From a virus, in IMG/VR virus record IMGVR_UViG_3300047368_000324, positions 12,616 through 76,615 of that record: a stretch of DNA of 64,000 nt, one strand, 5' to 3'. Shown piece after piece: positions 1-15,748 of the stretch. Numbering within the stretch: the first letter of the stretch is position 1; every line of letters begins with the position of its first letter. The position numbers and the translations under genes were made by a program. Below the pieces are notes generated by a model, which worked only from the letters and a program-made list of their open reading frames with translations, did no database searches and had not been told where the DNA came from.

Positions 1-63
1 AGAGGGTAGGCTACTTGATTACAAGACAAGACACTTGATCCATGATGCACTACTTTTAGTATC

Positions 64-297: not shown

Positions 298-298
298 C

Positions 299-460
299 AT
301 GACTGAAGAGATAGAGAATATTATATATAAATATATACAGAATAAAGAAAAATTAAATACTATCGAAGAATTAAATACTTATTTAAATAAATTAAGTGAT
401 GATGATTTTGAAATTCTTGCTGAATATATTTTAAACAAACTAAAAGAAGATAATTCTTGA
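299..460 (+). CDS. small hypothetical protein (53 aa, not in ORF track)
   Basis: ATG299..TGA460, MTEEIENIIYKYIQNK...; stop codon overlaps the next -35 box TTGACT. Confidence 0.6.
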   Translation: MTEEIENIIYKYIQNKEKLNTIEELNTYLNKLSDDDFEILAEYILNKLKEDNS

Positions 461-494
461 CTTTCGGGGCTAAACAAAATAGAATACTTATATT

Positions 495-905
495 ATGGGA
501 TTAGATCAACAAGCTTATAGCAAAAATTCAGAAGGAGAAGAACATGAAATCGCTTATTGGAGAAAGCACAATCGCCTTCAAGGGTGGATGGAAGAACTTT
601 GGCAAGCCAAGGGTAGACCAAACTACGAACCGACTGATAATGGGGGTCTAGGAGACTTTAATTGCGTTAATCTTTATTTAAATGAGCAAGACCTTGATGA
701 CCTTGAGGATGCAGTTTGTGCGAAAGCGTTACCATCGTGCGGTGGATTCTTCTTTGGAGATGATTCGTTCTCTTGGGCAAACAAGCATGGAGAACATCAT
801 GAAGGTTATGATTATTTCTACAAGGAACTAGATATGGAATTCATAGAAAAAGCTAGAGATGAAATTAATAAAGGAAATAAAGTATTCTATACTTGTTGGT
901 GGTGA
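495..905 (+). CDS. conserved phage hypothetical protein
   Basis: MGLDQ..., YWRKHNRLQGWM, GFFFG and C-terminal YxCWW motifs typical of a widespread phage early-protein family. Confidence 0.75.
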   Translation: MGLDQQAYSKNSEGEEHEIAYWRKHNRLQGWMEELWQAKGRPNYEPTDNGGLGDFNCVNLYLNEQDLDDLEDAVCAKALPSCGGFFFGDDSFSWANKHGEHHEGYDYFYKELDMEFIEKARDEINKGNKVFYTCWW

Positions 906-1004
906 ATATGTATTCAATAGACATAATTGATATTGTTAATAATATATTTATCGGAACAGGTTTGGCGGTACTCTTAATATTTGTTTTATTTTTAGCATTT
1001 ACTT

Positions 1005-1217
1005 ATGATGACTAATAACAAAGAAAGAGAATTATTATTAAATATAAATAATATAGAGAACGAATTAAACATAATTGAAAAAGAATTAGATTACATAATC
1101 GACAATGCTCCCGAAGATGGAGAGGTTGCAGAACTCTTAGAAATCGAGCGAGGTTACCTTTTGTCAGAACTTGGCATCGCCAAGGATTCTTATATGTTAC
1201 TTACTAAAGATAAATAA
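1005..1217 (+). CDS. hypothetical acidic coiled-coil protein
   Basis: ORF in early gene run. Confidence 0.6.
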   Translation: MMTNNKERELLLNINNIENELNIIEKELDYIIDNAPEDGEVAELLEIERGYLLSELGIAKDSYMLLTKDK

Positions 1218-1341
1218 TTACATTCTCTATACAATATATATATAAGCATAATATAAGAACAAATAACACACTTATATTATTACTTGATTTATTTTAAGTT
1301 AATGATTATTATTAATTTATATATAAACACTTGTAAATAAA

Positions 1342-1387
1342 GGGATTCCGTTGTGGGTCAAAGTGGGAGAAAGTGGGTCTGTATGGG
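1342..1387 (+). repeat. 10-bp-period TGGG direct repeats (MraZ-box-like; G-quadruplex consensus)
   Basis: ttgtgggtca aagtgggaga aagtgggtct gtatgggcta inside a very AT-rich intergenic region. Confidence 0.6.
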
Positions 1388-1723
1388 CTACGCGACTTCA
1401 ATATATATAATAACTAATATAAATATATTCAAATAACAAATGAAATTAAACAAAATAAACAAAATTCTAAATAATATAAATTCAAAATTGCTTGAAATTA
1501 AACTTAAAAATAATTTTAATAGTAAAAATATATCTAATAATTGCGAAATGAAAATTGATAATGAAAATAATTCAAATACAAAGCGAAATAAATACGGATT
1601 TCCAACTTTATTCAGATAATACTGCTCTTTTTAACATATTTTAATTGATTAATATATATTAATTGGTCGCGTTCGCAAGTTTTCGGTTGACAAGCAAGCG
1701 ATATTGCCACATACTTATAACAT

Positions 1724-1954
1724 ATGAGCGAATTAACACGAAATATAAATGCTTTGCTAGATGAATATAATGATATTAAACAAGATAAATCAATAACAGG
1801 CGATTCTATTGAAAATATAATTAGTGATATAAATAAATTAACTAATAATGGATTAAATGTTAATGATATATTCACAAATAACTACTATGTTAACGATTAT
1901 CAAGAGGATAAGCGTTGTGCGAGTGGCAAAATCTTCGGAGTAAAGCAATCATGA
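1724..1954 (+). CDS. hypothetical early protein
   Basis: ORF preceded by TTGACA-N17-CATACT promoter. Confidence 0.6.
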   Translation: MSELTRNINALLDEYNDIKQDKSITGDSIENIISDINKLTNNGLNVNDIFTNNYYVNDYQEDKRCASGKIFGVKQS

Positions 1955-2154
1955 TTGAATTAGAGACAAATAAACATATAGCACCAAAGACAGGGCAATA
2001 TAAACTAGAAATAATTGATAAAACAATTGATGAAATTATATTAATTTATGAAAATAAAAATATAAATGATTTAATTGAAATAATGAATGGTTTTAGTCTT
2101 AATAAATATAGTAGAAGATTAACAGGTAGTGATATGTACTTGTGGGAGACTTAA
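1951..2154 (+). CDS. hypothetical protein
   Basis: ATGA overlap with upstream stop favours start at 1951. Confidence 0.55.
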   Translation: MIELETNKHIAPKTGQYKLEIIDKTIDEIILIYENKNINDLIEIMNGFSLNKYSRRLTGSDMYLWET

Positions 2155-2327
2155 TATTGCATTATATATCAAGCAATAAACGAAATTAAGATTGAATTTG
2201 AGCCAAATAACTTCAAATAAAGCTATTATGCCATATATACCAAGCATTTATGTCGATAAAACAGAAAAAAATCGACACATTAAAAAAAAGTGTTGACAAG
2301 AGCGACATATTTTGCGATACTTAAACC

Positions 2328-2573
2328 ATGACACAATTACAAAGCACTTACAACACGATCCGCAAGCAACGCGACATTGCGGATGAGGTATCTAACTTGA
2401 GTTCGTACATGAGCGGAAACACAAGCGAGCTTGTGCAACACATAGGCTTTCTAGGAGATAAGATAGAAGACCAAGCACAAATGACTAATGGATATTTAGA
2501 TGATATAAGATCATCAATAGATAAGAATACAGAAGCATTACAATTAATAGCTAGAATTTTACAAAATAAATAA
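2328..2573 (+). CDS. hypothetical coiled-coil early protein
   Basis: TTGACA-N17-GATACT promoter ending a few nt before the ATG. Confidence 0.7.
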   Translation: MTQLQSTYNTIRKQRDIADEVSNLSSYMSGNTSELVQHIGFLGDKIEDQAQMTNGYLDDIRSSIDKNTEALQLIARILQNK

Positions 2574-2604
2574 TAAATTTAATAACATTAATAAATATAT
2601 AATT

Positions 2605-2814
2605 ATGAGTATCGCAAAAAACGCAAGAGCATCAGAAGTAATGAGCAAAGTGCAGAATGGACACTACGCTAGAAATGGAAAGTTTGCAAACTTCGGTTCT
2701 ATCCCCGAAGATAGCATATATTACCACACTTGGTTGGCACAGAAAGCCGAGCAGAAGCAAAAAGAAAAAATGGCTCAACGAGCAATCAGATCGGGGGTTC
2801 GTAGTCATGCCTAA
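2605..2814 (+). CDS. hypothetical basic protein
   Basis: ORF in operon. Confidence 0.65.
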   Translation: MSIAKNARASEVMSKVQNGHYARNGKFANFGSIPEDSIYYHTWLAQKAEQKQKEKMAQRAIRSGVRSHA

Positions 2815-3073
2815 GTATGCAGTATTTGTTAAAATGGTTCACCTTGGCAAGTTTGTTATCGAGGCAGAAGACGAAGAGCACGCAAGGCTTATAATGGATT
2901 CGGGAGAAATTGCAGATGATGAATGTGTGGATATTCAGTCGGTAGAGAGCGAGATTACGACTATTGAACTTGCTGATAAACCACCATTTGAGGGTTTTGA
3001 ATCACCTAGAATACCCGAAGACTTTGAGACAATGACCACTGATGGAGAAATAATAGAAGATAATAAAGAATAA
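2807..3073 (+). CDS. hypothetical acidic protein
   Basis: probable start MPKYAVFV at 2807; IEAEDEEHA motif common in small phage proteins. Confidence 0.6.
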   Translation: MPKYAVFVKMVHLGKFVIEAEDEEHARLIMDSGEIADDECVDIQSVESEITTIELADKPPFEGFESPRIPEDFETMTTDGEIIEDNKE

Positions 3074-3174
3074 TATGGAAATAATAGTTGCATCACTTTT
3101 AACTTGTTTTTTAAATAAAACAGTAATATATATTAAACCAAACCAAGAACAAATAATTTATACAGAAAATACTA

Positions 3175-3203
3175 TTGACAAATAATCAAATATATAGTAT
3201 TAT
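3175..3203 (+). promoter_or_regulatory. sigma70 promoter driving a non-coding region
   Basis: TTGACA-N17-TATTAT. Confidence 0.75.
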
Positions 3204-3248
3204 TAATACATAACAATTGAGAAATAAACTCAATCAAATAAAATAAAT

Positions 3249-3260
3249 TGATCTTTAACA
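3249..3260 (+). promoter_or_regulatory. boxA-like antitermination site
   Basis: TGATCTTTAACA, 11/12 match to rrn boxA TGCTCTTTAACA. Confidence 0.55.
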
Positions 3261-3269
3261 TTTTAAATT

Positions 3270-3690
3270 TTGAGCATAGATCTCGCAAGCATTAAGTTGC
3301 TAAAAGCCAATTCTTGTAAGTCTCAATTCACTTTGGAACAATGAGTCGATAGCTGAGTATCGGACATTGACTCGTTCCATTCTATTTGGAAGGGCTTATA
3401 ATCCTTCCTGTGGGTGACTCGAAATAACCTGTCGTGAGCGGGTTAAGGTATGCAGATCCCTGTGGTAGGGACGGTAGAGTCCAATCGGATGAGCCGAATG
3501 ACAAATGCCAAGTCTAGTCTGTAGTTCGAAGTAGGTAATCCATGAACTGATGTTCACGCCGAAAAGTTGAAGGTATACAGTAGTCCTTCCCCACATTTAT
3601 TTTTACAGGCAAATATGCGGAGGTTGTGTGTTGCCTCTAGTGACTATCATCGCCTGTTAGGTAACTCAATAAAAGCCTAACGCTCCAAAA
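3270..3690 (+). ncRNA. putative large structured ncRNA of unknown family
   Basis: GC-elevated, no credible + strand ORF, many hairpins, long-range pair TGTGGG(3409-14)/CCCACA(3590-95), own promoter and terminator. Confidence 0.65.
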
Positions 3691-3720
3691 GCCCCCATCT
3701 TTCGAGGTGGGGGTTTTTTT
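3690..3720 (+). terminator. intrinsic terminator
   Basis: gcccccatct-ttcg-aggtgggggt followed by a T run. Confidence 0.85.
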
Positions 3721-3757
3721 GTTTGACAAGATCGACCACCTAGTCTACTATGGTAGC

Positions 3758-4015
3758 ATGAACACATTAAAAGACATACTATCACATTTCGGATACATTA
3801 ACTCGGCTCAGCTCGCAGAGCTTAACGAACACTTTCCTCACATGAGGGTGGTTATTAAATGGGGCGGATTGCCTCGTGAACGAGTTCCTGTATGGCAAGC
3901 AATTGAAACCATCGAGAGAGTCGAACGAGAGAACCTTGACTATTGCAGAGAGGTATTTCTATCTGCCAAGGATTGCAACAATCTTCGTGAGGCTTTACAT
4001 ATAACCACTAATTAA
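3758..4015 (+). CDS. hypothetical early protein
   Basis: ATG3758 directly after TTGACA-N17-TACTAT; the track start at 3707 lies inside the terminator. Confidence 0.7.
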   Translation: MNTLKDILSHFGYINSAQLAELNEHFPHMRVVIKWGGLPRERVPVWQAIETIERVERENLDYCREVFLSAKDCNNLREALHITTN

Positions 4016-4023
4016 AATATATT

Positions 4024-4269
4024 ATGAAGTATCAAGCAGAACATAGTGCAGTTGAATTAGGTCTATTAGATATAGATGATAGAGTATATGATAATGAACA
4101 TAGAATGGATTATGCTCAAAAACAAGAAATACAAAGTAGAGTTGAATTAATTAGATTATTATTGAAAAGAAATTTACCTCTAAAAGCTAAACAACAATTA
4201 AAATTCTTAGATAGATATATTGATCAATGCTTATATAATGATTATATGGTGAATGACTATTTATCTTGA
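4024..4269 (+). CDS. hypothetical protein
   Basis: ORF; TGA stop overlaps next -35 box. Confidence 0.65.
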   Translation: MKYQAEHSAVELGLLDIDDRVYDNEHRMDYAQKQEIQSRVELIRLLLKRNLPLKAKQQLKFLDRYIDQCLYNDYMVNDYLS

Positions 4270-4300
4270 CCTTTATCTTAATCTTAATTAGTATTATACT

Positions 4301-4876
4301 ATGATAAATCCAGCAGAAGTAACTAACTATAATCGAACTCAATCTGAATTACAGGAGTTTTTATTATTTTGTATTAATGTCGCAGGTAAAAAGTCTGCAG
4401 TCGAGGCTCCAAAACTAGAAGTCTTCCTCGAAAGAGCAAAAGATATCTCTGACACAGATTCTCCATTTGATGCTCTTCGTGCTCTAGAAAAAGCTGGCAG
4501 ACTACAGGAGGTGCTTCATTGGGCGTCAATTAGCCCTTACAAGCAACGCTACAACAGCTACAAGGATGTTCTTGCTCTAGGAGACCTACAAGCAGTTACT
4601 CTCGCCCGCCTGATGCAGGTGCGAGGTGTTGGACTTAAAACCGCACGATTCTTTCTATCTCACAGTCGCGAGGACTTTGATGAGCCCATGCTTGACACAC
4701 ATATTCTTCGCTTCCTTAGGGATCAGGGTTACAGAGACGCCCCAAAAAGTACCCCTCAAAACCAAGGAATCTACAACTATTACTCTAATGTATTTAAAAT
4801 GTTTGCTCGTACACTTGGCAAATCAGTTACTGATTTGGATTTAGAAATCTGGAAGCAATACTCAAAAACAGAATAA
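4301..4876 (+). CDS. HhH-GPD DNA glycosylase, Ogg2-like
   Basis: HhH motif VRGVGLKTARFFL and downstream LDTHILRFL. Confidence 0.7.
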   Translation: MINPAEVTNYNRTQSELQEFLLFCINVAGKKSAVEAPKLEVFLERAKDISDTDSPFDALRALEKAGRLQEVLHWASISPYKQRYNSYKDVLALGDLQAVTLARLMQVRGVGLKTARFFLSHSREDFDEPMLDTHILRFLRDQGYRDAPKSTPQNQGIYNYYSNVFKMFARTLGKSVTDLDLEIWKQYSKTE

Positions 4877-5027
4877 ATTGGAACTACTAATAATCATAAC
4901 TATGGGTACAGTAATGGGCGTGAAGCTAGCATTCGAATCTTGGAATGACTAAAACGCCAAATACGTAAATGACAAATATGGAAATACCAAATAACCAAAT
5001 AATATATATTCAGCAGAGAGCGCCGCC

Positions 5028-5106
5028 CAACACCCTGAACATCAACGACTTATGAAATTTTCGCCTAGTCTGAGAATCTCGTAAGTCTTTAAGAAGCAAG
5101 GATTTA
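5028..5106. repeat. 80-bp palindromic element, copy 1
   Basis: caacac-N13-GACTTA-N12-CTAG-N13-TAAGTC-N13-GATTTA. Confidence 0.85.
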
Positions 5107-5162
5107 CAACAAAAGTAAAAAAAGTGTTGACAGCAAGCAGTCTGTAGGTTAGTATTATATAC

Positions 5163-5552
5163 ATGATTAATTACGATATACCAAACTCAATCTCACAATT
5201 TCAATCGAAAGCTATGTTGGAATTTTCCCATCTTGATTTCAAGCCACATCGTCATGCTGACGGAGTTCAAGCTGTGCTTGAATTGGGTAATGACATCTCG
5301 ATTTCTGTCGTTGCGAACAACGAAGGAGGTCAAGGGCTTTATGGTAATCTCAAGGAGGATCTTTACGAAGTTGCGTTTTTTTATAAAAATGATATGATTC
5401 CTCTTTCTCCTTCCGATGATGTTGTGGGATGGCAATCTCCTCAGCAGATTTCTTATCTAATGATGAAGGCTCAATCCGAGGGTATTTATTGGGTGGATGA
5501 ACTTCGAGAAGCAAAAAGAGAATATAGAAAAGAATTAGGGCTTGACAGCTGA
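5163..5552 (+). CDS. conserved phage hypothetical protein
   Basis: leaderless ORF after TTGACA promoter; SVV...GLYG...LYEVA...DDVVGW motif. Confidence 0.75.
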   Translation: MINYDIPNSISQFQSKAMLEFSHLDFKPHRHADGVQAVLELGNDISISVVANNEGGQGLYGNLKEDLYEVAFFYKNDMIPLSPSDDVVGWQSPQQISYLMMKAQSEGIYWVDELREAKREYRKELGLDS

Positions 5553-5576
5553 GCACTATTAATCTAGTATTATATC

Positions 5577-5822
5577 ATGACAACAGAAGAAGAATACAGA
5601 CAAAGAGCAGAAACAGTTTTAAACATCGTTAACGGCAATCTTGCATGGTCAAATCCAAGTTCAACAGTTTGCCTTGACCAACATGAGCGTCATCCCGAAA
5701 AGTTCCCAAAGGGAAGTGCATTTCAATCGTTCGATGAATCTTTAGATGACATCATTCGAGACTTGACATCCTATAGAGATGAGACTAGAATAGAATCATC
5801 TTTTCAATCAGCAGAACTATAA
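5577..5822 (+). CDS. hypothetical early protein
   Basis: own TTGACA-N17-TAGTAT promoter. Confidence 0.7.
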   Translation: MTTEEEYRQRAETVLNIVNGNLAWSNPSSTVCLDQHERHPEKFPKGSAFQSFDESLDDIIRDLTSYRDETRIESSFQSAEL

Positions 5823-5834
5823 CCAACACACACT

Positions 5835-6062
5835 ATGTTAACAAACGAAAAACAAATTGCAGAGTTTAGACTCCGCACTCTCCATAAAATGCTCAAGCTT
5901 GAACTTCTTGGAATGAAACGCAGAGGTCAATCGGCTTACGCTATCATAAAACAAGAAACAGGTTTTACAGGATCAAAGCAAAAAGTCTATGACAAACTTG
6001 ATGACCTGCTCAACCCTCCTGCTCACGATGTGGAAATGGAAAAAGCAATTTATAATGCTTGA
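5835..6062 (+). CDS. hypothetical early protein
   Basis: LKLELLGMKR...SAYAIIK motif. Confidence 0.7.
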   Translation: MLTNEKQIAEFRLRTLHKMLKLELLGMKRRGQSAYAIIKQETGFTGSKQKVYDKLDDLLNPPAHDVEMEKAIYNA

Positions 6063-6093
6063 CATTTAATTCAAACTATATTATATTTATATC

Positions 6094-6366
6094 ATGTTAG
6101 ATTATATTGAAGCAAACTGCGAATTACCTTCGCTTGAAGACAAAGCCTCCTACGACCAAGAATCGGGAATGTGGGAATTATATTTCGAGGAGCTTTTGCC
6201 CTCTTGGTACAATCGGAGCGAAGGCGAGCATCCTGACCTCATCACTTTACATTTCGAGAGCGAACACGAAGCTCAAGAAATTCTTAATCAACAATCAACA
6301 ATCCTCAACAAAAGGAATCAAGAAAATGAAGTTAGTTCAGAAAATCAAGAACCTGTTCTCTCCTAA
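6094..6366 (+). CDS. acidic hypothetical protein
   Basis: own TTGACA-N17-TATATT promoter. Confidence 0.65.
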   Translation: MLDYIEANCELPSLEDKASYDQESGMWELYFEELLPSWYNRSEGEHPDLITLHFESEHEAQEILNQQSTILNKRNQENEVSSENQEPVLS

Positions 6367-6556
6367 GTATCAAGTCGTCTATCGCACGCTTGACGGCAGA
6401 ACAGAACGCTATACCATCAACAAACCATCATATGCTTATGAATTTGGCAACAATCAGGAGGGCAAGCAAATCGTTGGCTTCCGTTCTTATTGTCATAATC
6501 GCCACGGAGTGCGTTCATTCCGTTACGATAGAGTCGTAGCATTAGAAAAGGCATAA
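6326..6556 (+). CDS. stand-alone WYL-like domain protein
   Basis: start after AAAGGA SD; VVY...R...P and YCHNRHGVRSFRYDRV match the WYL signature. Confidence 0.6.
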   Translation: MKLVQKIKNLFSPKYQVVYRTLDGRTERYTINKPSYAYEFGNNQEGKQIVGFRSYCHNRHGVRSFRYDRVVALEKA

Positions 6557-6560
6557 TTAT

Positions 6561-6719
6561 ATGACTGCATCATCACTTAAAAAACAGATTCGTCAACTTG
6601 GCTACGAGCTAATGCTTGCAGAGGTAACAGAATCTTATTGCGAAGAATTCATTGAGAAGAGGAAATTGCACGACTCTCTACTTGAGAAATTATATAAGTT
6701 AGAGAAAAGAGTTTTCTGA
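6561..6719 (+). CDS. small hypothetical protein (52 aa, not in track)
   Basis: MTASSLKKQIRQLGYEL... Confidence 0.55.
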   Translation: MTASSLKKQIRQLGYELMLAEVTESYCEEFIEKRKLHDSLLEKLYKLEKRVF

Positions 6720-6730
6720 TTCTACCCTCC

Positions 6731-6810
6731 TAAACCACTATCCCCCAATGACTTGGGGGATTTTGGTCCTAGGCCCGCCGTGCCGGAAGTCTATGATAGA
6801 GAAGCACTTA
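6731..6810. repeat. 80-bp palindromic element, copy 2
   Basis: TAAACC-N13-GACTTG-N13-CTAG-N13-GAAGTC-N13-CACTTA. Confidence 0.9.
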
Positions 6811-6882
6811 AGTAACAAAAAAAATGTATTTATTAGTCATTTTATAGTTGCAATTTAAACCCGTTCTGTCATACTTATATGT

Positions 6883-7116
6883 ATGATAATTAATGAAGAC
6901 TACCAATCAGATGAAAACCCTAGTGCTGAACTCGTTGTCGAGGCGATCATGGATCAAATCTCTGACATACTTATTCAACCTATGCACGAAAAACTTACTG
7001 CTGAAGATCAACTTACGCTTGGTCTTGTAGCAAGTGCCTTAAAGGTATTAGGCAAGAAAGCTCAAGCTTACGATAATTTACAAAACGGAGATTTACCTCT
7101 CGATTGGCAAAATTAA
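6883..7116 (+). CDS. hypothetical early protein
   Basis: TTGCAA...CATACT promoter, leaderless. Confidence 0.7.
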   Translation: MIINEDYQSDENPSAELVVEAIMDQISDILIQPMHEKLTAEDQLTLGLVASALKVLGKKAQAYDNLQNGDLPLDWQN

Positions 7117-7188
7117 TGCTTGACTTTTTATATATATTCACTTATACTTATATTATAACAATCAGATAAACCCAAACTTAAAAAAATT

Positions 7189-7986
7189 ATGTTAGATACA
7201 ACTCAAGAAACTCCTCGTCTTAACCTTCGCATTTGCGGTAACCGATCAACCATCGTTGACATGGATGCCGTTCGTAGAGTGCCAACTCCACAAGCAACCA
7301 ATCGCTGGAAACCTATTGCTCACTCAAAAGTTGTGGATACAACTCGAAACACTCTTGAAGACAAAGGTTTTGAAATTCTTAACGAATGCCATAATGTGAC
7401 CAAAGGTGGCGAGCATTACTTTGGAATGTTTCAAGTCAATCATGCTGACCTTTCCGATAATGGTGGCGAGCGTGGTTGCGTTGTGGGCATGAGAAATTCC
7501 CATGACAAACTTTTCGCAGCAGGTTTGTGTGCAGGTGACGCACCATTCATCTGTGACAATCTTATTTTTCACAATGAAGTTGTATTTACTCGCAAGCATA
7601 TTGGCGATGTTCATGGCGAACTTATTACGAGAGTGAACAAAATCACCGAGTACTTAATCCCTATGTGGACTCGCCAAAATGATCGAGTGCAAGCTTACAA
7701 AGACCTTGCCGTCAATGATCGAGAAGCCCAACATCTTATTTTCGATGTTTACGAGGCAGGAATCAAGACCAATTTGATTGGTAAATCCATGCTTGCCCAA
7801 GCTTGGGAACAATGGAGAAGTTCTGACCACAAAGTTTTTCAAGATCGAAATCTCAATTCATTGTACAACGCATTCACGGAAGTAAGCAAAGGCAGAAATG
7901 TTATGCACTTGCCCAAACGATCTGAAATCTTTCACAATGCTTTTGATCCTGTCGCAGGGGTTGAAGAGGTTGAACTCGTAGCTTAA
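7189..7986 (+). CDS. DUF932-like phage/plasmid protein
   Basis: PIAH, NSHD, FICDNL, FTRKH and LYNAFTE motifs. Confidence 0.7.
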   Translation: MLDTTQETPRLNLRICGNRSTIVDMDAVRRVPTPQATNRWKPIAHSKVVDTTRNTLEDKGFEILNECHNVTKGGEHYFGMFQVNHADLSDNGGERGCVVGMRNSHDKLFAAGLCAGDAPFICDNLIFHNEVVFTRKHIGDVHGELITRVNKITEYLIPMWTRQNDRVQAYKDLAVNDREAQHLIFDVYEAGIKTNLIGKSMLAQAWEQWRSSDHKVFQDRNLNSLYNAFTEVSKGRNVMHLPKRSEIFHNAFDPVAGVEEVELVA

Positions 7987-8016
7987 TTTTAACACTAAAA
8001 ACAAAGGATATATATT

Positions 8017-8244
8017 ATGAAATGCCGTAATCTCAACGAAGTACTCGATTCACGCAAAGGACGATTTGTTTCCGTCCTTCTCAAGAATGGTCTGAAGCGT
8101 GAGCTTTATTCAGCTAAAGTTCACGACTATAATTCTAAAGCCGTCCGTTTCCGTGACACTAATGGGGGCGAGCGTAGAGTTGAACGCTCTATGATTGTCA
8201 GGGCTAAGGTTGCCGAGCGTTATTTTAAACGCTCAAGGAGCTGA
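8017..8244 (+). CDS. small basic hypothetical protein
   Basis: AAAGGA SD, followed by a terminator. Confidence 0.65.
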   Translation: MKCRNLNEVLDSRKGRFVSVLLKNGLKRELYSAKVHDYNSKAVRFRDTNGGERRVERSMIVRAKVAERYFKRSRS

Positions 8245-8259
8245 CCAAAGCCCTCCTTC

Positions 8260-8290
8260 AAAAACCCTTGGGAAACCAAGGGTTTTTTTT
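8260..8290 (+). terminator. intrinsic terminator
   Basis: acccttgg-gaaa-ccaagggt plus T run. Confidence 0.85.
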
Positions 8291-8296
8291 GTGCCT

Positions 8297-8376
8297 TAAC
8301 CTATTGTAGGTCAATGACTTACGGGCCGGCAACCCTAGGGAAATTAACTCGCAAGTCTTTGATTATCAAGCGTTTA
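8297..8376. repeat. 80-bp palindromic element, copy 3
   Basis: TAACCT-N13-GACTTA-N13-CTAG-N13-CAAGTC-N13-CGTTTA. Confidence 0.9.
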
Positions 8377-8420
8377 AAATTAAATGTTGACATTGAGTTC
8401 TTATCTGTTATTATATAGTT

Positions 8421-8822
8421 ATGATTAGAACAAAACCAGACTCTCGCTACGACATCGACTATGACCGCAAGGTGTTCGTATATAAAAATCTTCACAAGAA
8501 TTGCTGGAGCATTCGCCAGGACGGATTGGTTAAGGCTCATTCAGATGGGTCTCCAATCTCTATATATTCAGCGGTAATGAAAGTTAATCAAAAAGGTCGT
8601 GAGCGTGTGATTCGAGAAAAAAGTAAGAATGTTCATGCCGGTATCTTAGGTTACATCCGTCACGAAGATTTGAAAGTATGGGATGGATGGGTTGACATGA
8701 TCGAAATTACATACAATCCTTACAAGTATCATTCTTTTGTAGATGTCGAAAACAAGAAGACAAGATACTTTGCTACTCTTTGCAAACTTTATCAAGATAA
8801 AGTTTTAGTTGAGCGTTATTAA
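8421..8822 (+). CDS. conserved phage hypothetical protein
   Basis: VYKNLHKNCWS, GRERVIREKSKNVHA and ITYNPYK motifs. Confidence 0.75.
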   Translation: MIRTKPDSRYDIDYDRKVFVYKNLHKNCWSIRQDGLVKAHSDGSPISIYSAVMKVNQKGRERVIREKSKNVHAGILGYIRHEDLKVWDGWVDMIEITYNPYKYHSFVDVENKKTRYFATLCKLYQDKVLVERY

Positions 8823-8860
8823 GGGTTGACAAGTTAATTTATTTTTATTAGTATAGTATC

Positions 8861-9601
8861 ATGATTAAAACAACACTTCTCACATCAGGTAATCAAAAAA
8901 TTCTCAAAGGAGAAAAAATGGGTTACATCACAAAAGGTATTCATCTTGCTCCAGCAAATCTTGCGGGCTACGAAGTTTGCCAATGGCGTTCAAAAGGATG
9001 CACCGCTTCTTGTCTCAACACAGCAGGTCGTGGGCAAATGAATTCTGTTCAGCAATCACGAGTTGCCAAGACAAAACTATTCTTCGAAGAGAAAAAAGAT
9101 TTTATGTACAAGTTGTGCAAAGAAATTGCGTCAACTATCAAATCCGCAAGCAAGAAAGAAATGAAAGCAGTTTTCCGCCTCAATCTCACAAGTGACATCG
9201 CATGGGAAGGTGTTTACATGAAAGATCCAAACTATAACATTTTTGAATACTTCTGTGGCGAGCAATTTTATGATTATACAAAGTCATTCAAGAGAATGTG
9301 TGCTTTTCTTGGTAAGCCATTCGCCAAAGACGAGGTAAAATTTCCTTCCAATTATCATTTGACTTTTTCTCGCTCGGAGAACAATGATAAGAAATGCGAA
9401 ATGGTTCTTGCTATGGGTGGCAATGTTGCCGTGGTGTTTCGCAATCAACTTCCCAAAACTTGGAAAGGTTACGAAGTCGTCAATGGCGATGATACTGACT
9501 TGCGTTTTCTTGACAAGCGAGGTGTCGTTGTTGGTCTTATCGAAAAAGGTATGGCAAAGAAAGATGCAACGGGATTTGTCCAAGAAGGTATTGACTCTTG
9601 A
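8861..9601 (+). CDS. GP88-like Cys-containing protein
   Basis: VC....GC...CLNTAGRG, FRLNLTSDIAW, FYDYTK, YHLTFS and GDDTDLRFLD motifs. Confidence 0.7.
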   Translation: MIKTTLLTSGNQKILKGEKMGYITKGIHLAPANLAGYEVCQWRSKGCTASCLNTAGRGQMNSVQQSRVAKTKLFFEEKKDFMYKLCKEIASTIKSASKKEMKAVFRLNLTSDIAWEGVYMKDPNYNIFEYFCGEQFYDYTKSFKRMCAFLGKPFAKDEVKFPSNYHLTFSRSENNDKKCEMVLAMGGNVAVVFRNQLPKTWKGYEVVNGDDTDLRFLDKRGVVVGLIEKGMAKKDATGFVQEGIDS

Positions 9602-9624
9602 TTCTAAACTGATATAATTATATT

Positions 9625-9834
9625 ATGAAAAAAACAAAATTCATCTTAACATTATCAAGCGACAAAATTCCACTCATAGCCGAAGTATGTGCTTTAAGAG
9701 TATTAGAGAATGATGAAAAAGTATTAGGCAAAGCTTGCGTAGAAGCTAATGTAAAGTCAAAAAACTTTATAGATATAACACGAAAAGCTAATTATAGAGA
9801 AGGAAAGTTATATGCTTACGCGGAGTATATTTAG
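9625..9834 (+). CDS. hypothetical protein
   Basis: TTGACT...TATAAT promoter, leaderless. Confidence 0.6.
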   Translation: MKKTKFILTLSSDKIPLIAEVCALRVLENDEKVLGKACVEANVKSKNFIDITRKANYREGKLYAYAEYI

Positions 9835-9908
9835 AATTGATAATTTGCTAAATAGAAAAACGAAATAGGTAAATAGTAAATAGTATATTTTTATCAATGA
9901 AAATTCCA

Positions 9909-9988
9909 TAACATTTTTATTATCAACGACTTACGTAAGTGGTCGCCTAGGTTGAGTTTTGCGTAAGTCTCTAAGTATCAAAGATTTA
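9909..9988. repeat. 80-bp palindromic element, copy 4 (at the strand switch)
   Basis: TAACAT-N13-GACTTA-N13-CTAG-N13-TAAGTC-N13-GATTTA. Confidence 0.9.
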
Positions 9989-10113
9989 AGGAGGGGCTTT
10001 CTGCGACGCAGTCCACCCCTCCCAACCCGATGATTAAGATAAAGTAGGATAGATCAACTCTTTAAAAACACAAGCGATACCGAATCCAGCCAAAAGAATA
10101 ACTAATTCCATAT

Positions 10114-10260
10114 TTAGTTATTTATAATTTGCATAGCTTCGGCATCCCAAATGTCTATAATCCTGCTAAGGATCCATGCTTGGCGTTTTTCTGTGCGAGC
10201 TTTTTTCATTGTCTCGGTAATGCGTTGAAGTCTTGGTTGTGGTTTATTTAATTCTGACAT
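10114..10260 (-). CDS. small hypothetical protein (48 aa, not in track)
   Basis: MSELNKPQPRLQRITETMKK..., promoter upstream. Confidence 0.55.
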   Translation of the reverse strand: MSELNKPQPRLQRITETMKKARTEKRQAWILSRIIDIWDAEAMQIINN

Positions 10261-10291
10261 GATACAACTATAAGGGTTTTAATTTTAAAAG

Positions 10292-10477
10292 TCAAGCGAA
10301 AAGAGGATGCAATTTTACATCTTCGAAACGAATCCCAACCTTGCGGTCGGTGCGATACGGGCGAACCATAGCGATGGTGCCAAGCTCTTCGTGCTCGGTA
10401 GCTTGGATAAATTGAAAGATTTTATTATCTCGAGAGATAAGCACATCACCTTTTTTAAATTTATTTTTATCTGACAT
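10292..10477 (-). CDS. hypothetical protein
   Basis: FKKGD N-terminal motif. Confidence 0.65.
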   Translation of the reverse strand: MSDKNKFKKGDVLISRDNKIFQFIQATEHEELGTIAMVRPYRTDRKVGIRFEDVKLHPLFA

Positions 10478-10485
10478 ATTATTTT

Positions 10486-10668
10486 TTAGTGTTGGGTTAC
10501 TACATTAAAACGAGGAGAGTTTAGATTCTCTTCTCTTTCGATTGTTCTAAGGTATGAAAGACTTGACGCAGTCCGAACCCGTGGGTATTCAGTTCCTGTG
10601 TCGAAGATCTTAACAGACCAATGCGTTGACCATTTTTTGATTCTAACTTGTATTTTATCTTTAATCAT
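10486..10668 (-). CDS. hypothetical protein
   Basis: leaderless after TTGCAA promoter. Confidence 0.65.
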   Translation of the reverse strand: MIKDKIQVRIKKWSTHWSVKIFDTGTEYPRVRTASSLSYLRTIEREENLNSPRFNVVTQH

Positions 10669-10715
10669 ATAACTACTATCGCATATAAATTCAGAAATTG
10701 CAAGAAAAAAGTGAA

Positions 10716-10795
10716 AAAAGATTCTTTTATTTTATTGCACTATTCTGTTCTGACTAGTCGGCAGATGCCGTAAGTCTTTGGCTATGTGCTACTTA
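10716..10795. repeat. 80-bp element, copy 5 (left half degenerate)
   Basis: CTAG(10754)-N13-TAAGTC-N13-TACTTA. Confidence 0.7.
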
Positions 10796-11101
10796 GAACA
10801 CAAGAGCCTCGACATTTTGATTTGATACGGCAAACCAATCGGATGGATTAATGATATGACCATTTAGTACAGGCTCAAAGTTGACCTGACTTACTCCGGC
10901 ATTGACTATTCCATTTACCCGCTCGCGAGTTGTTGGAGTGTTCCAGCCAGCCAGCGACCATATCACAAACCCGCTTGCGTCACGCTTGATTATAGCGTTC
11001 CCATGCAACCAAACGGTGTTACCGTCCGTGCGAGTGTTGCCAACTGTCAAAGGTTGGCGAGATTCAAAAGCTTGTTTAATTTGTTGTGTTACTTGTCTCA
11101 T
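10793..11101 (-). CDS. conserved phage hypothetical protein
   Basis: LHGNAI and LAGWNTPTTRERVNG motifs; stop codon lies in element 5. Confidence 0.75.
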   Translation of the reverse strand: MRQVTQQIKQAFESRQPLTVGNTRTDGNTVWLHGNAIIKRDASGFVIWSLAGWNTPTTRERVNGIVNAGVSQVNFEPVLNGHIINPSDWFAVSNQNVEALVF

Positions 11102-11110
11102 TATTTTATA

Positions 11111-11296
11111 TTAAGCATTATCATTTGGTTTTGCAAGCATAAACTTCATAAAAGTTTCTTGAGCTTTTAGATTGTCTTGGATCTCATCAAGCTCAATCTG
11201 TGCGTTAATTACCATCTGCTGACTTTGGATGTGCCCCGCTTCTGCATTTGGTGTGAGTACTCGAATAAGTTCTTTAAGCTCTTTTATTTTATCCAT
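11111..11296 (-). CDS. hypothetical protein
   Basis: ORF in operon. Confidence 0.6.
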   Translation of the reverse strand: MDKIKELKELIRVLTPNAEAGHIQSQQMVINAQIELDEIQDNLKAQETFMKFMLAKPNDNA

Positions 11297-11447
11297 GGTT
11301 TGAGAGTATTGGAGTTTGTGTTTTGATTTGTAATTGCTTTGCCTTTTTCATGGCTTTAGCGTGAGTCTTTGCGTTATCTACGAGTTTTCCAAAGAGGCGA
11401 ATATCGAACCAGTTTGAAAAGTTTGGGTTTTTATCAACATTAATCAT
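11289..11447 (-). CDS. small protein, paralog A (52 aa, not in track)
   Basis: MINVDKNPNFSNWFDIRLFGKLVDNAKTHAKAM...; own promoter. Confidence 0.75.
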   Translation of the reverse strand: MINVDKNPNFSNWFDIRLFGKLVDNAKTHAKAMKKAKQLQIKTQTPILSNHG

Positions 11448-11478
11448 AAGTCTTATTATGCAGTTTTGAGTTTAAATG

Positions 11479-11679
11479 TCAAGCGTTTCTTTCAACTGAC
11501 TTCCAACCATAAGCTAAAACTTTGTCATTATAGCGAGCTTGTGAAAGCATAGCCTTAAGGTCAGAAATTTTTGCATTGATCCAATCAATTTCGCTTTGAT
11601 CCATTTTACCTTGCCACATTGCAAGTTGGTTTTTTTCTATTGCGATTTCGTTTTTTATTTGTTCTGTTGTCTTAATCAT
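11479..11679 (-). CDS. hypothetical coiled-coil protein
   Basis: own promoter, leaderless. Confidence 0.65.
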   Translation of the reverse strand: MIKTTEQIKNEIAIEKNQLAMWQGKMDQSEIDWINAKISDLKAMLSQARYNDKVLAYGWKSVERNA

Positions 11680-11871
11680 ATTTACAATCTATTCTATTTT
11701 TTAGTAAAAGTCAAGTTTTATTTTACTTTTTTTTAGCTATTACAAAAGCTAAAAGAATTTTTTCTCTTTCGGTGAGTTGTGTTTTATTAATCTTTATCAT
11801 ATAAACAACATAGCAAGAAAATCGCTAAAAGTCAAGAACTTTTTTAATTTTTTAAAACTTTTTTTCTATTG

Positions 11872-11952
11872 TAAGTCTTTGATCTTTAGAGACTTCCGGC
11901 ACAGCCGGCCTAGGCCCGTAGGCCCGTAAGTCCTTGATTACCAAGGCGTTTC
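11872..11952. repeat. 80-bp palindromic element, copy 6
   Basis: TAAGTC-N13-GACTTC-N13-CTAG-N13-TAAGTC-N14-CGTTTC. Confidence 0.9.
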
Positions 11953-12024
11953 GTCTTCTTTCATGTCTTGCCACATGAGGTAGAATACTACAAGCCAAGG
12001 AGAGAATAGGATAATTTCGATCAT
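11938..12024 (-). CDS. putative 28-aa single-TM peptide
   Basis: MIEIILFSPWLVVFYLMWQDMKEDETPW; starts just after the upstream stop. Confidence 0.45.
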   Translation of the reverse strand: MIEIILFSPWLVVFYLMWQDMKEDETPW

Positions 12025-12028
12025 AATG

Positions 12029-12247
12029 TTATTTTTTGCGTTGTTCGTGCAGTACGGTTTGAAACTTTTTGCGAGCTTCTTGTACTGCGTGGAGAGCGTC
12101 GAGGATTGCCATGCCCTGAGTAATGCTCAAGGTTTGATCTCCTTCAGTGTTGCTCGTTTGAGCGAGGAAATTGAGATTTCCTTCAGCTTTAGAAAGTGCG
12201 AGTCCCAAGTCAAGTTCGGGAAAGTCCATTTTTTTTGATTCGTTCAT
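12029..12247 (-). CDS. hypothetical protein
   Basis: probable start MNESKK at 12247, directly after paralog B. Confidence 0.6.
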   Translation of the reverse strand: MNESKKMDFPELDLGLALSKAEGNLNFLAQTSNTEGDQTLSITQGMAILDALHAVQEARKKFQTVLHEQRKK

Positions 12248-12248
12248 A

Positions 12249-12425
12249 TTAGAGAGATATTCTTGCACCTGTTCTGATTGGCTCGCGAAGATCTTGAGCT
12301 TGAGATTCAAGTTTGCTTGCGATTCTCATTGCCTGTGCGTGAGATTTTGCGTTATCAACAAGCCTTCCGTCAAAAAGGATGTTGAACCATTTAGTGAAGT
12401 TTGGGTTTTGTATTATCTTTATCAT
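12249..12425 (-). CDS. small protein, paralog B (58 aa, not in track)
   Basis: MIKIIQNPNFTKWFNILFDGRLVDNAKSHAQAM... Confidence 0.75.
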   Translation of the reverse strand: MIKIIQNPNFTKWFNILFDGRLVDNAKSHAQAMRIASKLESQAQDLREPIRTGARISL

Positions 12426-12472
12426 GTAACTAATCTATAAAAGTTTTTGGTAAAAGTCAAGTTTTATTTTAA

Positions 12473-12721
12473 TTATTTTTCAAAAATTCTATTAATGTAG
12501 TAGCTGTAATCCTCGCCAAAGCTGAGGTGAGATTGTAACTCACGCACACGCTTGGCAACTTGTCGCCGTACTTCATGCTTATCTTTCGCTTGGTATGTTA
12601 ACACATGATTGGTGCTTTCCATCATTACTTGGGAATTTGTGTTTGTATTAAAGAAGGGGAGCTTGCCACCTCCAATTGAACTGACATGGATATTTGCGGT
12701 GAATGTTTTATTTTTAATCAT
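12473..12721 (-). CDS. hypothetical protein
   Basis: own promoter. Confidence 0.65.
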   Translation of the reverse strand: MIKNKTFTANIHVSSIGGGKLPFFNTNTNSQVMMESTNHVLTYQAKDKHEVRRQVAKRVRELQSHLSFGEDYSYYINRIFEK

Positions 12722-12762
12722 AAGTTTATTATAGATTTATATTTTAAGAAGTCAAGACCTAT

Positions 12763-12948
12763 TTACTCGTATTGTGAGTGGAAGCCCCAATCAATGTCAG
12801 GCTGCTCGTCGAACTCTCTCAAGGATAGCTCGTCCTGTAGCTGCCCAAGCTCATTGCGTATTACAACGCGTTGAGAGTCGCTAAGTATGCACTCAGCAAG
12901 AGCGGTTTGTAGTGTTAGTATTTCTCTCTCTATTTCTTTTGTTGTCAT
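12763..12948 (-). CDS. hypothetical protein
   Basis: own promoter. Confidence 0.6.
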   Translation of the reverse strand: MTTKEIEREILTLQTALAECILSDSQRVVIRNELGQLQDELSLREFDEQPDIDWGFHSQYE

Positions 12949-13022
12949 ATATACAATGTAACATATTATAGCTAAAACACAAGCCTAAAATGCAACTATT
13001 TTATTACATTATTATGTTATTG

Positions 13023-13102
13023 TAAGTCATTGTTTATTATAGACTTAGGGCACGAGCGGCCTAGGCCTGCCGGCCCGTAAGTCTTTGATTATTAAGCGTT
13101 TA
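13023..13102. repeat. 80-bp palindromic element, copy 7
   Basis: TAAGTC-N13-GACTTA-N13-CTAG-N13-TAAGTC-N13-CGTTTA. Confidence 0.92.
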
Positions 13103-13324
13103 GAACTCGTCCATCAAAAGCTCGTCCAAGGCGTATGTATCAAGCTCGGGGTCTTGGTAGTTCGCACCATCAGGGGTATGAAGCGTGCCTGATTCTACTA
13201 GGAAATTGGCTAGATCTTTGTAGTGCACAAAACGCCTAGCTAGCTTGTATAAGCTCTCATCGTTGCCTAACCATAGGGCCACATTCCATGTTTCCCAATT
13301 CGCCCAACCGTTGTAACCTTCCAT
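13100..13324 (-). CDS. conserved phage hypothetical protein
   Basis: YNGWANWETWNVALWL...TPDG motif; stop codon lies in element 7. Confidence 0.75.
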   Translation of the reverse strand: MEGYNGWANWETWNVALWLGNDESLYKLARRFVHYKDLANFLVESGTLHTPDGANYQDPELDTYALDELLMDEF

Positions 13325-13501
13325 TATTTGACCTTGGTTAAACGGTAACGGCGACGCTTGGACCCTATGTTCCGGGCTTGGCGTGCACGGAGCAAAGCTT
13401 CGGCCTGCTTTTTGTATAGAGGCATGGACTCAATTGTCCAGCCTGTTTTATCTGAGAACGGTATTGATTCTAGTATGAACATATATTCCTTTGATTAGAG
13501 A

Positions 13502-13798
13502 TTAAACTTCGAAGATTTCACGCATTGTACCGCTGACGCAATCCATATCTACAAGACTTTCGTCATTGTCAAAATCTTCGTCCTCTTCAGCCTCGACAGA
13601 ATCAAGAGAAGTAAATTCATCCTCAATGTCACGCTCGGATGCGTGTTGGATGCCATGCTCAAGAGTAAACTCTTCATTGGCGATTTCTTCCTCGATGTCC
13701 GAGAGCAGTTCAGCGAAGCGACCTGTAACTTTGTTGTTGTTTGCGTTAGCAAGTTCAACGGCTTTGGCGATTAGAGCGATATTATTTTCGTTATTCAT
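13502..13798 (-). CDS. highly acidic protein (possible DNA mimic)
   Basis: roughly 30% D/E, own promoter. Confidence 0.65.
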   Translation of the reverse strand: MNNENNIALIAKAVELANANNNKVTGRFAELLSDIEEEIANEEFTLEHGIQHASERDIEDEFTSLDSVEAEEDEDFDNDESLVDMDCVSGTMREIFEV

Positions 13799-14182
13799 AG
13801 TTTGTATATTATAGTATTATAGAGTGATTGCAAGAAAAAAGTTTGATTATGCGAAAGTTTTTTTATGCTTTGCTTTGCGTGGAAGTACTTTGTTTCTAAG
13901 CTTGTGAGGTCTTGCCTTTGTGAAGACTATTGGCATTCGTACTTTTATCTTATTCATATAAACAATCTAACACATTGTACCGAAAACACAAGAAAAAAAT
14001 TCAACTATTTTACTGCACGATCCCCTCCCCCCCTATCAGAAACCCTACCCCTTTTGTGAAATGAAAGGAATCTATAAAATTCGATTCGACCGGGGGGGTG
14101 GTATTTTTCAATATCTGAATGAATCTGACTTTAATTAACAAATGGGCCGACCAAAAAAAATCCACGGGGTGTATTTTTAGGT

Positions 14183-14910: not shown

Positions 14911-15748
14911 TATCTTTTAATTTTTTTTCAAAAGCCCTTCCCCATGGATAACCTAGCTCTCTATGAAGCATTCGGGTTCTAATTTCCCAGAATTCTTGGC
15001 TGGTCGCCGTTGGATTGATACCGGCTGAATCGTGCTCTAAACTTCGGCGGTCACCCTCCTCATTATCTTGGGGTCTATAAACATAGACAGGTATTCCATT
15101 TTTATTAGATCTTAAGCAGAAAGCAATATCATCTCCAATCAATCTTATGTCATCTGTTATGTCTTCTGCAAATAAATATTTTAATGAAGATTTATTAAAT
15201 GCCATGCCTCCGCATAGATAATCTGCTTTTTTCAGCATGGGCTTATCTGGATCTCTATGATTCTTCAGAGTATAGAATGTTCCAGACATATCTGTGATGC
15301 CTGTAAATGCCACGGCTGTATTTTTATCATAATTTTTACATTGATTATTATATTTATACGTTGCGCTTCTATCTAAATCCCATCCGTAGTTCTGAACCAG
15401 GCAGTCATCGTGGTGCAAGATGCTTACCATTGCCCTACAATAGTCGGGCATCGGGAAACGATCATCATCTAGTGTTATTATTTTTTCTGTAGGAGCAGCT
15501 AATGCGACTTGATATCTTCCAATGTGTTTAAAATTAAAGTCAGAATACACAGTATGAACATTATCCATACCTTTTGTTCTATTTAGCCATGTTTCTATGA
15601 AATTAGTTTTTTCTTTTGGCAATCCTAAAAAACAGCCAATTATGCACTTTGGCGGCAAGCTCTGACTAAAAACCCTATCTAGTTGCTTATTAAGTAGCTC
15701 TTCTGTTTTATTATAATAATTAAGTATAAGAGTATAATCAGTATTCAT
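14903..15748 (-). CDS. GT-A fold (GT2-like) glycosyltransferase
   Basis: LDDD (DxD) motif and GDDIAF. Confidence 0.7.
   Translation of the reverse strand: MNTDYTLILNYYNKTEELLNKQLDRVFSQSLPPKCIIGCFLGLPKEKTNFIETWLNRTKGMDNVHTVYSDFNFKHIGRYQVALAAPTEKIITLDDDRFPMPDYCRAMVSILHHDDCLVQNYGWDLDRSATYKYNNQCKNYDKNTAVAFTGITDMSGTFYTLKNHRDPDKPMLKKADYLCGGMAFNKSSLKYLFAEDITDDIRLIGDDIAFCLRSNKNGIPVYVYRPQDNEEGDRRSLEHDSAGINPTATSQEFWEIRTRMLHRELGYPWGRAFEKKLKDIN

Follow-up and report, generated by a model that had tools for sequence, protein, structure and literature searches.

Paired 25-bp palindromes around a GC-rich core at early-cassette boundaries of uncultured marine phages: putative architectural sites associated with cassette turnover

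The virus record IMGVR_UViG_3300047368_000324 carries an array of seven elements of about 80 bp, each made of two 25-bp palindromic arms flanking a GC-rich core, between genes of its early region. The array lies at positions 5028-13102 of the window analysed here, a stretch of 64,000 nucleotides that corresponds to bases 12,616-76,615 of the 76,615-bp IMG/VR record; the whole record was scanned for elements. About 250 distinct copies are spread over some 40 contigs, up to 211 kb long, of related uncultured marine phages, and it is almost certain that these are genuine boundary elements, conserved and linked to promoters and to the ends of genes. Taken as a whole they are best explained as composite early-cassette boundaries in which sites for an architectural protein are combined with a place of cassette turnover, an explanation to which we give an even chance of being right.

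The element in the window and in related phages

All seven copies of the initial annotation were found again at their positions, by reading the sequence and with an nhmmer profile built straight from them. On the 76,615-bp record, this profile detected the six full copies with E-values of 2e-12 to 2e-17 and copy 5 with an E-value of 4e-8, and nothing below E 0.1 in the rest of the record, in agreement with the claim that no copy lies outside the early region. Five places were matched by a 42-bp inner pattern with at most two mismatches, and none by the reversed control. A single-arm pattern with three mismatches gave 48 matches for 35 expected; because this loose pattern alone is not above chance, the signal resides in the architecture of the whole element. 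Within the arms the inner halves are conserved best; copies 1-4 have a degenerate outer half in their left arm. The intergenic placement of the copies, with copy 4 between convergent genes, was also confirmed. Copy 5, first described as a right half only, turned out to be a hybrid, whose left part is another module, with ATTGCAC, that is standard in relative L129. The copies and the signals next to them are as follows (window coordinates; promoters scored as sigma70-type, out of 12).

5028-5106: element copy 1; left arm 5028-5052, 29-nt core 5053-5081 with CTAG at 5065, right arm 5082-5106; nhmmer E 1.8e-12; orthologue in L005/L122
5108-5155, + strand: linker and promoter after copy 1; A-tract of about 20 nt, then TTGACA-17-TAGTAT (10/12); ATG at 5163, 7 nt past the -10 box
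6731-6810: element copy 2; left arm overlaps the hairpin and T-tract that end the upstream 52-aa gene (stop at 6719); nhmmer E 1.7e-14; the RNA fold shows a C5AA/TTG5 hairpin
6848-6875, + strand: promoter-like TTGCAA-16-CATACT, read from the sequence, 37 nt past copy 2 (36-41 class, see below); ATG at 6883
8263-8292, + strand: canonical intrinsic terminator of the upstream cassette, hairpin and T8, read from the sequence, 4 nt ahead of copy 3
8297-8376: element copy 3; arms 8297-8321 and 8352-8376, CCTAGG at 8334; nhmmer E 1.8e-14; two full matches to the IHF consensus, at 8352 and 8364
8387-8414, + strand: promoter TTGACA-16-TATTAT, 10 nt past copy 3; 11/12, with TG; ATG at 8421
9909-9988: element copy 4, at the switch from + to - strand genes, followed by a G/C hairpin at about 9990-10022; nhmmer E 3.8e-13
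10716-10795: element copy 5, hybrid; right arm 10771-10795 over the stop codon of a 102-aa gene; CTAG at 10754; left part of the ATTGCAC type; nhmmer E 4e-8
11807-11871, - strand: promoter TTGACT-17 of the next - strand cassette, reached via three A-tracts in a 36-nt linker
11872-11951: element copy 6, among - strand genes; small GC hairpins in the core; nhmmer E 3.4e-15
13023-13102: element copy 7; right arm over the stop codon of a 74-aa DUF7249 gene (13100-13324, - strand); nhmmer E 2.4e-17; perfect match to the arm pattern at 13023

A possible hydrophobic mini-ORF (open reading frame) of 25 codons, read by eye, lies at 10036-10113 (- strand), between the last minus-strand gene and the copy-4 hairpin.

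Relatives were gathered by one protein query, the 246-aa GP88-like protein encoded inside the array, which returned 54 related loci (53-94% protein identity, contigs of up to 211 kb); phages of this kind are thus common in marine metagenomes. Genome sizes in the clade are about 130-210 kb. The region had no match, by megablast or blastn, among 50,697 cultured-phage records, and no Rfam family overlaps the elements. For the DnaE, ClpB-like and TerL proteins, cultured relatives are only distant, the best cultured hits being below 40% identity and not T4-like. The closest relative, an IMG/VR contig of 128.6 kb (L005/L122), has copies in the same intergenic positions as the window, with shared flanking sequence; orthologous copies are 71-77% identical in the arms and 50% in the cores, which thus evolve faster, and core length is kept. 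When viral contigs were scanned for exact matches to a pattern with about 15 specified bases, at least 117 loci were returned, all of them chance matches except L005.

Throughout the family the arm is a 25-bp palindrome, TAAGTCGTTGA-N3-TCAACGACTTA, with information peaks at TAA, TTGA, TCAA and TTA. Scanning about 1 Mb of related loci with the 25-bp consensus (cut-off of at least 16/22 positions) produced 607 matches, compared with 5 in shuffles, and pairing of neighbouring arms yielded 251 non-redundant elements. GC content is 68% in the cores, compared with about 36% for the genomes, and the self-complementarity of the cores is moderate (0.52 paired versus 0.33 in shuffles). Within each genome the arm-to-arm distance is near-invariant, but genomes have different values: 41/42, 46-50, 52 (the commonest) or, in the window, 55 bp. 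The rigid spacing reported at first therefore holds within a genome and not across genomes, and the core of copy 1 measures 29 rather than 30 nt. Similarly, a CTAG is central in 7/7 window copies as claimed, in 1/7 copies of L005/L122 and in 68/251 family elements (27%). This lineage specificity, together with an unremarkable frequency of CTAG in the genome (216 sites versus 252 expected), led us to reject a functional centre at CTAG. A helical phasing of one arm relative to the other was also rejected, as the distance between the arms varies from genome to genome.

In near-complete relatives, arms are gathered in one region of about 10 kb per genome. Such confinement would suit signals for the pausing of DNA ejection, for packaging or for the start of replication, a role that we regard as highly improbable: the copies follow cassette boundaries and promoters one-to-one, their number ranges from 0 to more than 14 among relatives, and replication and packaging genes are not adjacent.

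Variant boundaries were also observed. The 184-kb genome of L129 has no TAAGTC-type arms; its junctions at 11912-11974, 13412-13474 and 15269-15331 consist of a G6C6-type palindrome, a ATTGTGCAAT box, an AT-rich stretch and a TTGAC promoter. Because the left part of window copy 5 (10716-10745) is of this type, the two boundary types can join in one element. A third arm variant, found at L123:8650-8722 and 9852-9934 and also in L128 and L133, has the inner half-sites CAATTA/TAATTG in place of TAAGTC/GACTTA and keeps ATCA(R)-N4-TTG.

Promoter register and the reading of the arms

Elements start at or right after the stop codon or terminator of the preceding cassette, and the stop of the upstream gene is the TAA of the arm in 20/141 cases, copies 5 and 7 among them. 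Promoters scoring at least 10/12 were found 40 times downstream and 6 times upstream of elements. Measured in 66 sequence clusters, the distance from the arm end to the -35 box peaks at 17-20, 29-31 and 36-41 bp, with none at 21-25, 32-33 or 42-56 bp; it has a 10.3-bp periodicity (R=0.53) that was reached by 0/5000 random draws, although kinship among relatives inflates these counts. The linkers consist of phased A-tracts, one to three in number and about 10 bp each, that abut the -35 box, and the centre of the promoter-proximal arm falls near -58, -68, -79 or -89, on one helical face. The proposal that the elements mark cassette boundaries of the early region is supported.

The early genes of these phages look leaderless. 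Among 764 distinct strong promoters of the sigma70 type in the early regions of the clade (window 1-14000, L122-L175), 292 have their first ATG exactly 6 or 7 nt past the -10 box, compared with about 11-39 for control trinucleotides. Window promoters with this ATG spacing include those at 5127, 5542, 6059, 8387 and 9591.

On the sense strand, non-Watson-Crick pairs in the arms were A:C more often than G:T (199 versus 123, and 153 versus 119), and the cores gave 131 A:C versus 126 G:T. The lack of any G:T excess over A:C argues against selection of an RNA hairpin, which should give the opposite bias. Double deviations from the consensus across the two sides of the arm showed no excess over chance in the family elements, with one exception to this uncoupling, a lineage-wide change of TTGA/TCAA to CTGA/TCAG. 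RNA-fold z-scores of the seven window copies ranged from -0.3 to -3.1, five being weaker than -2. What is conserved in the arms is sequence, not pairing, and the arms are probably read as double-stranded DNA by a protein.

It is rather unlikely that the element acts in RNA, as a hairpin at cassette 3' ends that terminates or attenuates transcription, is a site of processing or blocks 3'-exonucleases. Transcription of the element does speak for such a role: upstream ORFs often end in the arm, by the shared TAA counted above, and few have a T-run terminator of their own. Core hairpins have predicted energies of -8 to -12 kcal/mol in cores of high GC content, and the mean fold z of the whole element is -2.5; for the core stem-loop by itself the mean z is just -1.1, and no U-tract follows the hairpins. 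Three window copies (z -0.3, -0.7 and -1.1) fold no better than shuffles, many cores are perfect palindromes without a loop, such as CCTAGG, and copy 3 is preceded, 4 nt ahead, by a canonical terminator. G:U is no commoner than A:C on the sense strand and the arms have no compensatory excess. REP elements work in this way, and a further precedent exists in the stem-loops of PeSLs, repeated early-promoter cassettes of T4-type phages, which are often poly-G/poly-C and were shown to terminate transcription (PMC2839356); L129 has just such G6C6 palindromes at these positions.

The half-arm reads (W)(A)TCAA-N4-TTA and fits the IHF consensus WATCAR-N4-TTR. Matches to WATCARNNNNTTR number 20 in the 76.6-kb record, 6 of them in the 560 bp of elements, versus 0.15 expected there. 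Of 1004 half-sites in the family, 204 match WATCAR-N4-TTR fully and 55% keep TCAR-N4-TTR. In the IHF-H' complex, base 44 of the TTR sits 6 bp from the nearer kink, and the distortions made by HU and IHF are about 9 bp apart (PMC5829579). The predicted kinks of the arm, at the TpT step 8/9 and the ApA step 17/18, are 9 bp apart and symmetric about its centre, and T24 is 6 bp from step 17/18, which matches the IHF-H' geometry as far as sequence geometry goes. The arm thus fits an IHF site in pattern and geometry, as a resemblance and not as a proof. Because its half-arms fit WATCAR-N4-TTR and its kink steps lie 9 bp apart, each arm is most likely a single dimer site, in line with the earlier view of two dimer-type sites around a symmetric core.

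That the binder is a host bending protein of the IHF/HU type is a tentative assignment, to which we give somewhat less than an even chance. A host factor is probable because early promoters must fire before any phage protein is made and because these phages have no HU or IHF of their own: no HU/IHF gene (PF00216) was found in the window record and four searchable relatives. We infer protein binding, the nature of the protein and an effect on transcription, as follows. Each arm would most likely be one site for a dimeric DNA-bending protein, probably of the host IHF/HU family, and two sharp protein-induced bends around a stiff GC core would create a nucleoprotein boundary. This boundary may shape the DNA upstream of the promoter, either activating it or insulating it from the neighbouring unit, and the phased A-tract linker would hold the arm on one helix face relative to RNA polymerase. 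As a side effect, the dispersed 70-80 bp of homology would be where general recombination adds, deletes or swaps cassettes, as happens at PeSLs in T4-type phages. Of the two options initially raised, recombination site or multi-protein DNA-organising signal, the latter is favoured by the double-stranded DNA behaviour, the IHF-type consensus, the kink geometry and the promoter register.

Several observations weigh against this explanation. The arm consensus is stricter than that of Escherichia coli IHF, with ACTTA for TTR and a partly conserved N4, and the W-A positions of the IHF pattern are poor in information. Domain searches of about 25 early proteins revealed neither a helix-turn-helix (HTH) nor a ribbon-helix-helix (RHH) nor an HU/IHF domain, and no arm-binding protein was identified. 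The host markers WhiB and psbA were negative, and no close cultured relatives were found that would point to a host with IHF. Arm-to-arm distances across genomes (42, 47, 49-50, 52 and 55 bp) are not multiples of the helical turn; phase-dependent cooperation between the two arms is therefore not required. Since 41/251 elements, copy 4 included, lie between convergent genes and have no promoter to serve, promoter activation cannot be their sole role. A run of five or more T was found within 40 nt upstream in just 14/154 cases, and many upstream genes enter the arm without a canonical terminator; the elements must therefore be at least partly transcribed, which leaves room for a role in RNA. The kinship effect on the phasing counts applies equally to the breakpoint counts given below.

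The arms could instead be operators, two per element, for a dimeric regulator encoded by the phage, either a repressor for early shut-off or an early activator; TF1 of SPO1 and p4 and p6 of phi29 act on early promoters in such a way. We consider this unlikely. The palindromes have a specific sequence that is kept among genomes with just 70-94% protein identity, and the change of TTGA/TCAA to CTGA/TCAG affects both half-sites, compensated in 15/15 cases, as expected of a co-evolving dimer; the TCAG variant is, however, also permitted by WATCAR. The region is rich in ORFans without a known fold, but the roughly 25 early proteins have none of the three domains searched for. Arms at about -58 to -90 are off the promoter core, an unusual position for a repressor. 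One family of small, basic, helical proteins (about 63-75 aa; 5835-6062, + strand, in the window) is encoded in 76% of arm-rich versus 18% of arm-poor loci. It was modelled as a four-helix bundle (predicted local distance difference test score, pLDDT, 88); the 75-aa window protein gave nothing below E=3 with Foldseek against the PDB, and only unnamed viral clusters in the Atlas. This candidate binder, which came from a phyletic search of the local region, was not retained, its correlation with the arms being only loose.

The 25-bp arm palindrome was also looked for in bacterial genomes, where it occurs at more than 120 sites, chiefly in metagenome-assembled genomes (MAGs) of Bacteroidota and WOR-3, with an over-representation in Bacteroidota; 125/130 sites lie between genes. 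It is repeated within single MAGs, for instance WOR-3 QQ_bins.197.1, where the repeat unit is about 215 bp, and Microscillaceae Prado074 (loci L176-L295, e.g. L179:4528-7107). Several of the sites are AT-rich terminator stems and some lie beside tRNA genes, and the scan was unusable for naming the binder. A complete two-arm element with a GC core is present at L229:4530-4623, on a 5.7-kb contig binned to a Rhodobacteraceae MAG; it is either a weak hint of the host or a mis-binned phage fragment.

If an IHF/HU-type protein is the binder, the elements provide a testable case of symmetric sites of this type in helical register with phage early promoters, and could reveal by what means host architecture proteins are enlisted by a phage just after infection begins, within the first minutes.

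Cassette turnover at element edges

The early region is hyperplastic: the same small genes recur in a different order among relatives, and blocks are shuffled between elements. Gene adjacency was kept at a mean of about 0.18 at element junctions versus about 0.43 at element-free junctions, both values being low. Between the window and L122, 6.6 kb of colinear homology ends exactly at the right edge of copy 4, at 9988, where the blastn block 6058-9988 of the window also stops, and homology restarts at 10767 inside copy 5, with unrelated genes between 9988 and 10767. Ends of high-scoring segment pairs from all locus pairs were counted around the elements: 98 fell in the 0-9 bp bin at their far edge, versus 18-36 in neighbouring bins. 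In L144 a cassette of about 388 bp is enclosed by two elements, to both of which the single element of its close relative L143 aligns; judged by the sequences, this difference is the footprint of an exchange between two direct repeats. Three more indels between close relatives are flanked by 68-82-bp repeats. The gene-order map, the window/L122 block, the segment-pair ends and the L144/L143 pair thus bear out the prediction that gene-content breakpoints between relatives fall at the elements, but homology resumes at arm edges and not, as had been proposed, at the central CTAG. That the elements are hot spots of homologous recombination for cassette turnover is somewhat more probable than the contrary.

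A recombinase was searched for in the rest of the record, as the initial annotation had suggested, and in four relatives; no tyrosine (PF00589), serine (PF00239) or Y1/HUH (PF01797) recombinase was found in these five records, four of which are rated 95-100% complete. The attC core pair RYYYAAC/GTTRRRY is present in 0/251 elements, and the window copies have neither of its two sites. Together with the unconserved CTAG and the breakpoints at edges, not centre, these results speak against the dedicated site-specific recombination or cleavage site at CTAG that was first envisaged.

More generally, the elements could be sites for a dedicated, unrecognised recombinase or nuclease that moves cassettes, an integron-like system in a lytic phage, which we find quite unlikely. 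Several features are of the kind such a system would have: the elements bound cassette-sized units, homology stops at their edges, stop codons lie within the outer box, the symmetric core of each element has a dimer site on either side, and the cores are alike in length and sequence throughout a genome but not from one genome to another, a pattern also of chromosomal integron arrays. However, the cassettes have their own promoters and lie on both strands, most copies are at orthologous positions in the window and L122, and adjacency is often broken at element-free junctions too, in addition to the missing recombinases and core pairs. The 66-82-bp repeats beside indels fit ordinary homologous recombination.

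A broader form of this idea is a phage-borne cassette-exchange or chromatin-like boundary system. In it, two dimers of a protein that is encoded by the phage or injected with its DNA would occupy the four half-sites on either side of the genome-specific GC core, insulate early units, and catalyse or direct the excision and insertion of cassettes. We consider it very unlikely; if true, it would be an integron-like device in lytic marine phages that have no member of any known recombinase family.

Comparison with described systems and neighbouring features

PeSLs are repeated intergenic cassettes in which a strong sigma70 promoter follows a stem-loop and an AT-rich stretch. They cluster in hyperplastic regions rich in ORFans and mediate indels, replacements and the formation of mini-circles without a dedicated recombinase (PMC2839356, PMC4122927). 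Known from T4-type phages (Arbiol et al. 2010, Comeau et al. 2014), they are the closest described system. The elements studied here are likewise short intergenic repeats of an ORFan-rich, hyperplastic early region, in which a strong sigma70-type promoter lies behind a GC-rich palindrome and an AT-rich stretch; where relatives differ by an indel or a replacement, the repeats mark its limits, and there is no dedicated recombinase. The likeness is greatest in L129, which has a near-exact, simple PeSL form at orthologous junctions. The differences are that two conserved 25-bp palindromes of IHF pattern flank the GC core, that core length is fixed in each genome, that the arm is in helical register with the promoter, and that the phage is not T4-like and has a DnaE-type polymerase. 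Terminator activity and mini-circles are described for PeSLs only.

The elements are classed here as a variant of the PeSL-type promoter/terminator boundary, and not as PeSL family members in the strict sense. New are the paired 25-bp palindromes around a GC core, the IHF-type pattern, the genome-specific core length and the promoter register, in phages outside the T4-like lineage. The concept of regulatory repeats that also serve as points of recombination, at which ORFans are shuffled, is thereby extended beyond the T4-like phages. The early regions of the clade consist almost wholly of genes without known function. The element, which is easy to recognise, is a marker for the annotation of early cassettes and promoters.

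RIB/RIP elements are IHF-containing BIMEs of enterobacteria, in which one IHF site lies between two REPs. They share with the elements the WATCAR-N4-TTR pattern and 9-bp kink spacing of IHF sites, the location between genes at the ends of transcription units, and the joining of IHF-type sites with GC-rich palindromes. The arrangement is inverted here, with a single GC core between two symmetric sites. These are phage-borne palindromes in which additional bases (ACTTA) are conserved, and IHF binding to them is a prediction only. Like REPINs, which are REP doublets that RAYT transposases mobilise, the elements have two inverted short palindromes with a spacer and many intergenic copies; unlike REPINs and BIMEs, they are accompanied by no RAYT/Y1 transposase (PF01797), and their copies stay in one region of about 10 kb, at orthologous positions and tied to promoters.

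Integron attC sites are imperfect palindromes too, their variable centre being flanked by two pairs of protein sites; they are located at cassette 3' ends, sometimes over the stop codon, and are homogeneous within an array and different between arrays. The phage elements differ from them in having no integrase, core sites in 0/251 copies, cassettes with their own promoters in both orientations, and no bias towards single-strand folding.

Architectural activation from upstream sites is known for IHF at lambda pL or ilvPG, for phased A-tract curvature and for UP elements, in each case with single sites at single promoters. A bending site about 58-90 bp upstream of the start, a phasing of about 10.3 bp and A-tracts abutting the -35 box are common to these systems and the elements, which differ in being a repeated, symmetric two-site element with a GC core.

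Two other features lie near the array. A single ORF of 3846 aa (18869-30409, + strand), with no Pfam or PHROG match, adjoins the early region. Upstream of the array, a manA RNA motif (RF01745) at 3388-3599 (+ strand) is full-length and scores 73.6 bits, compared with a gathering score of 55.2; its sequence is conserved in 33 relatives, where it was seen as spurious minus-strand ORF hits.

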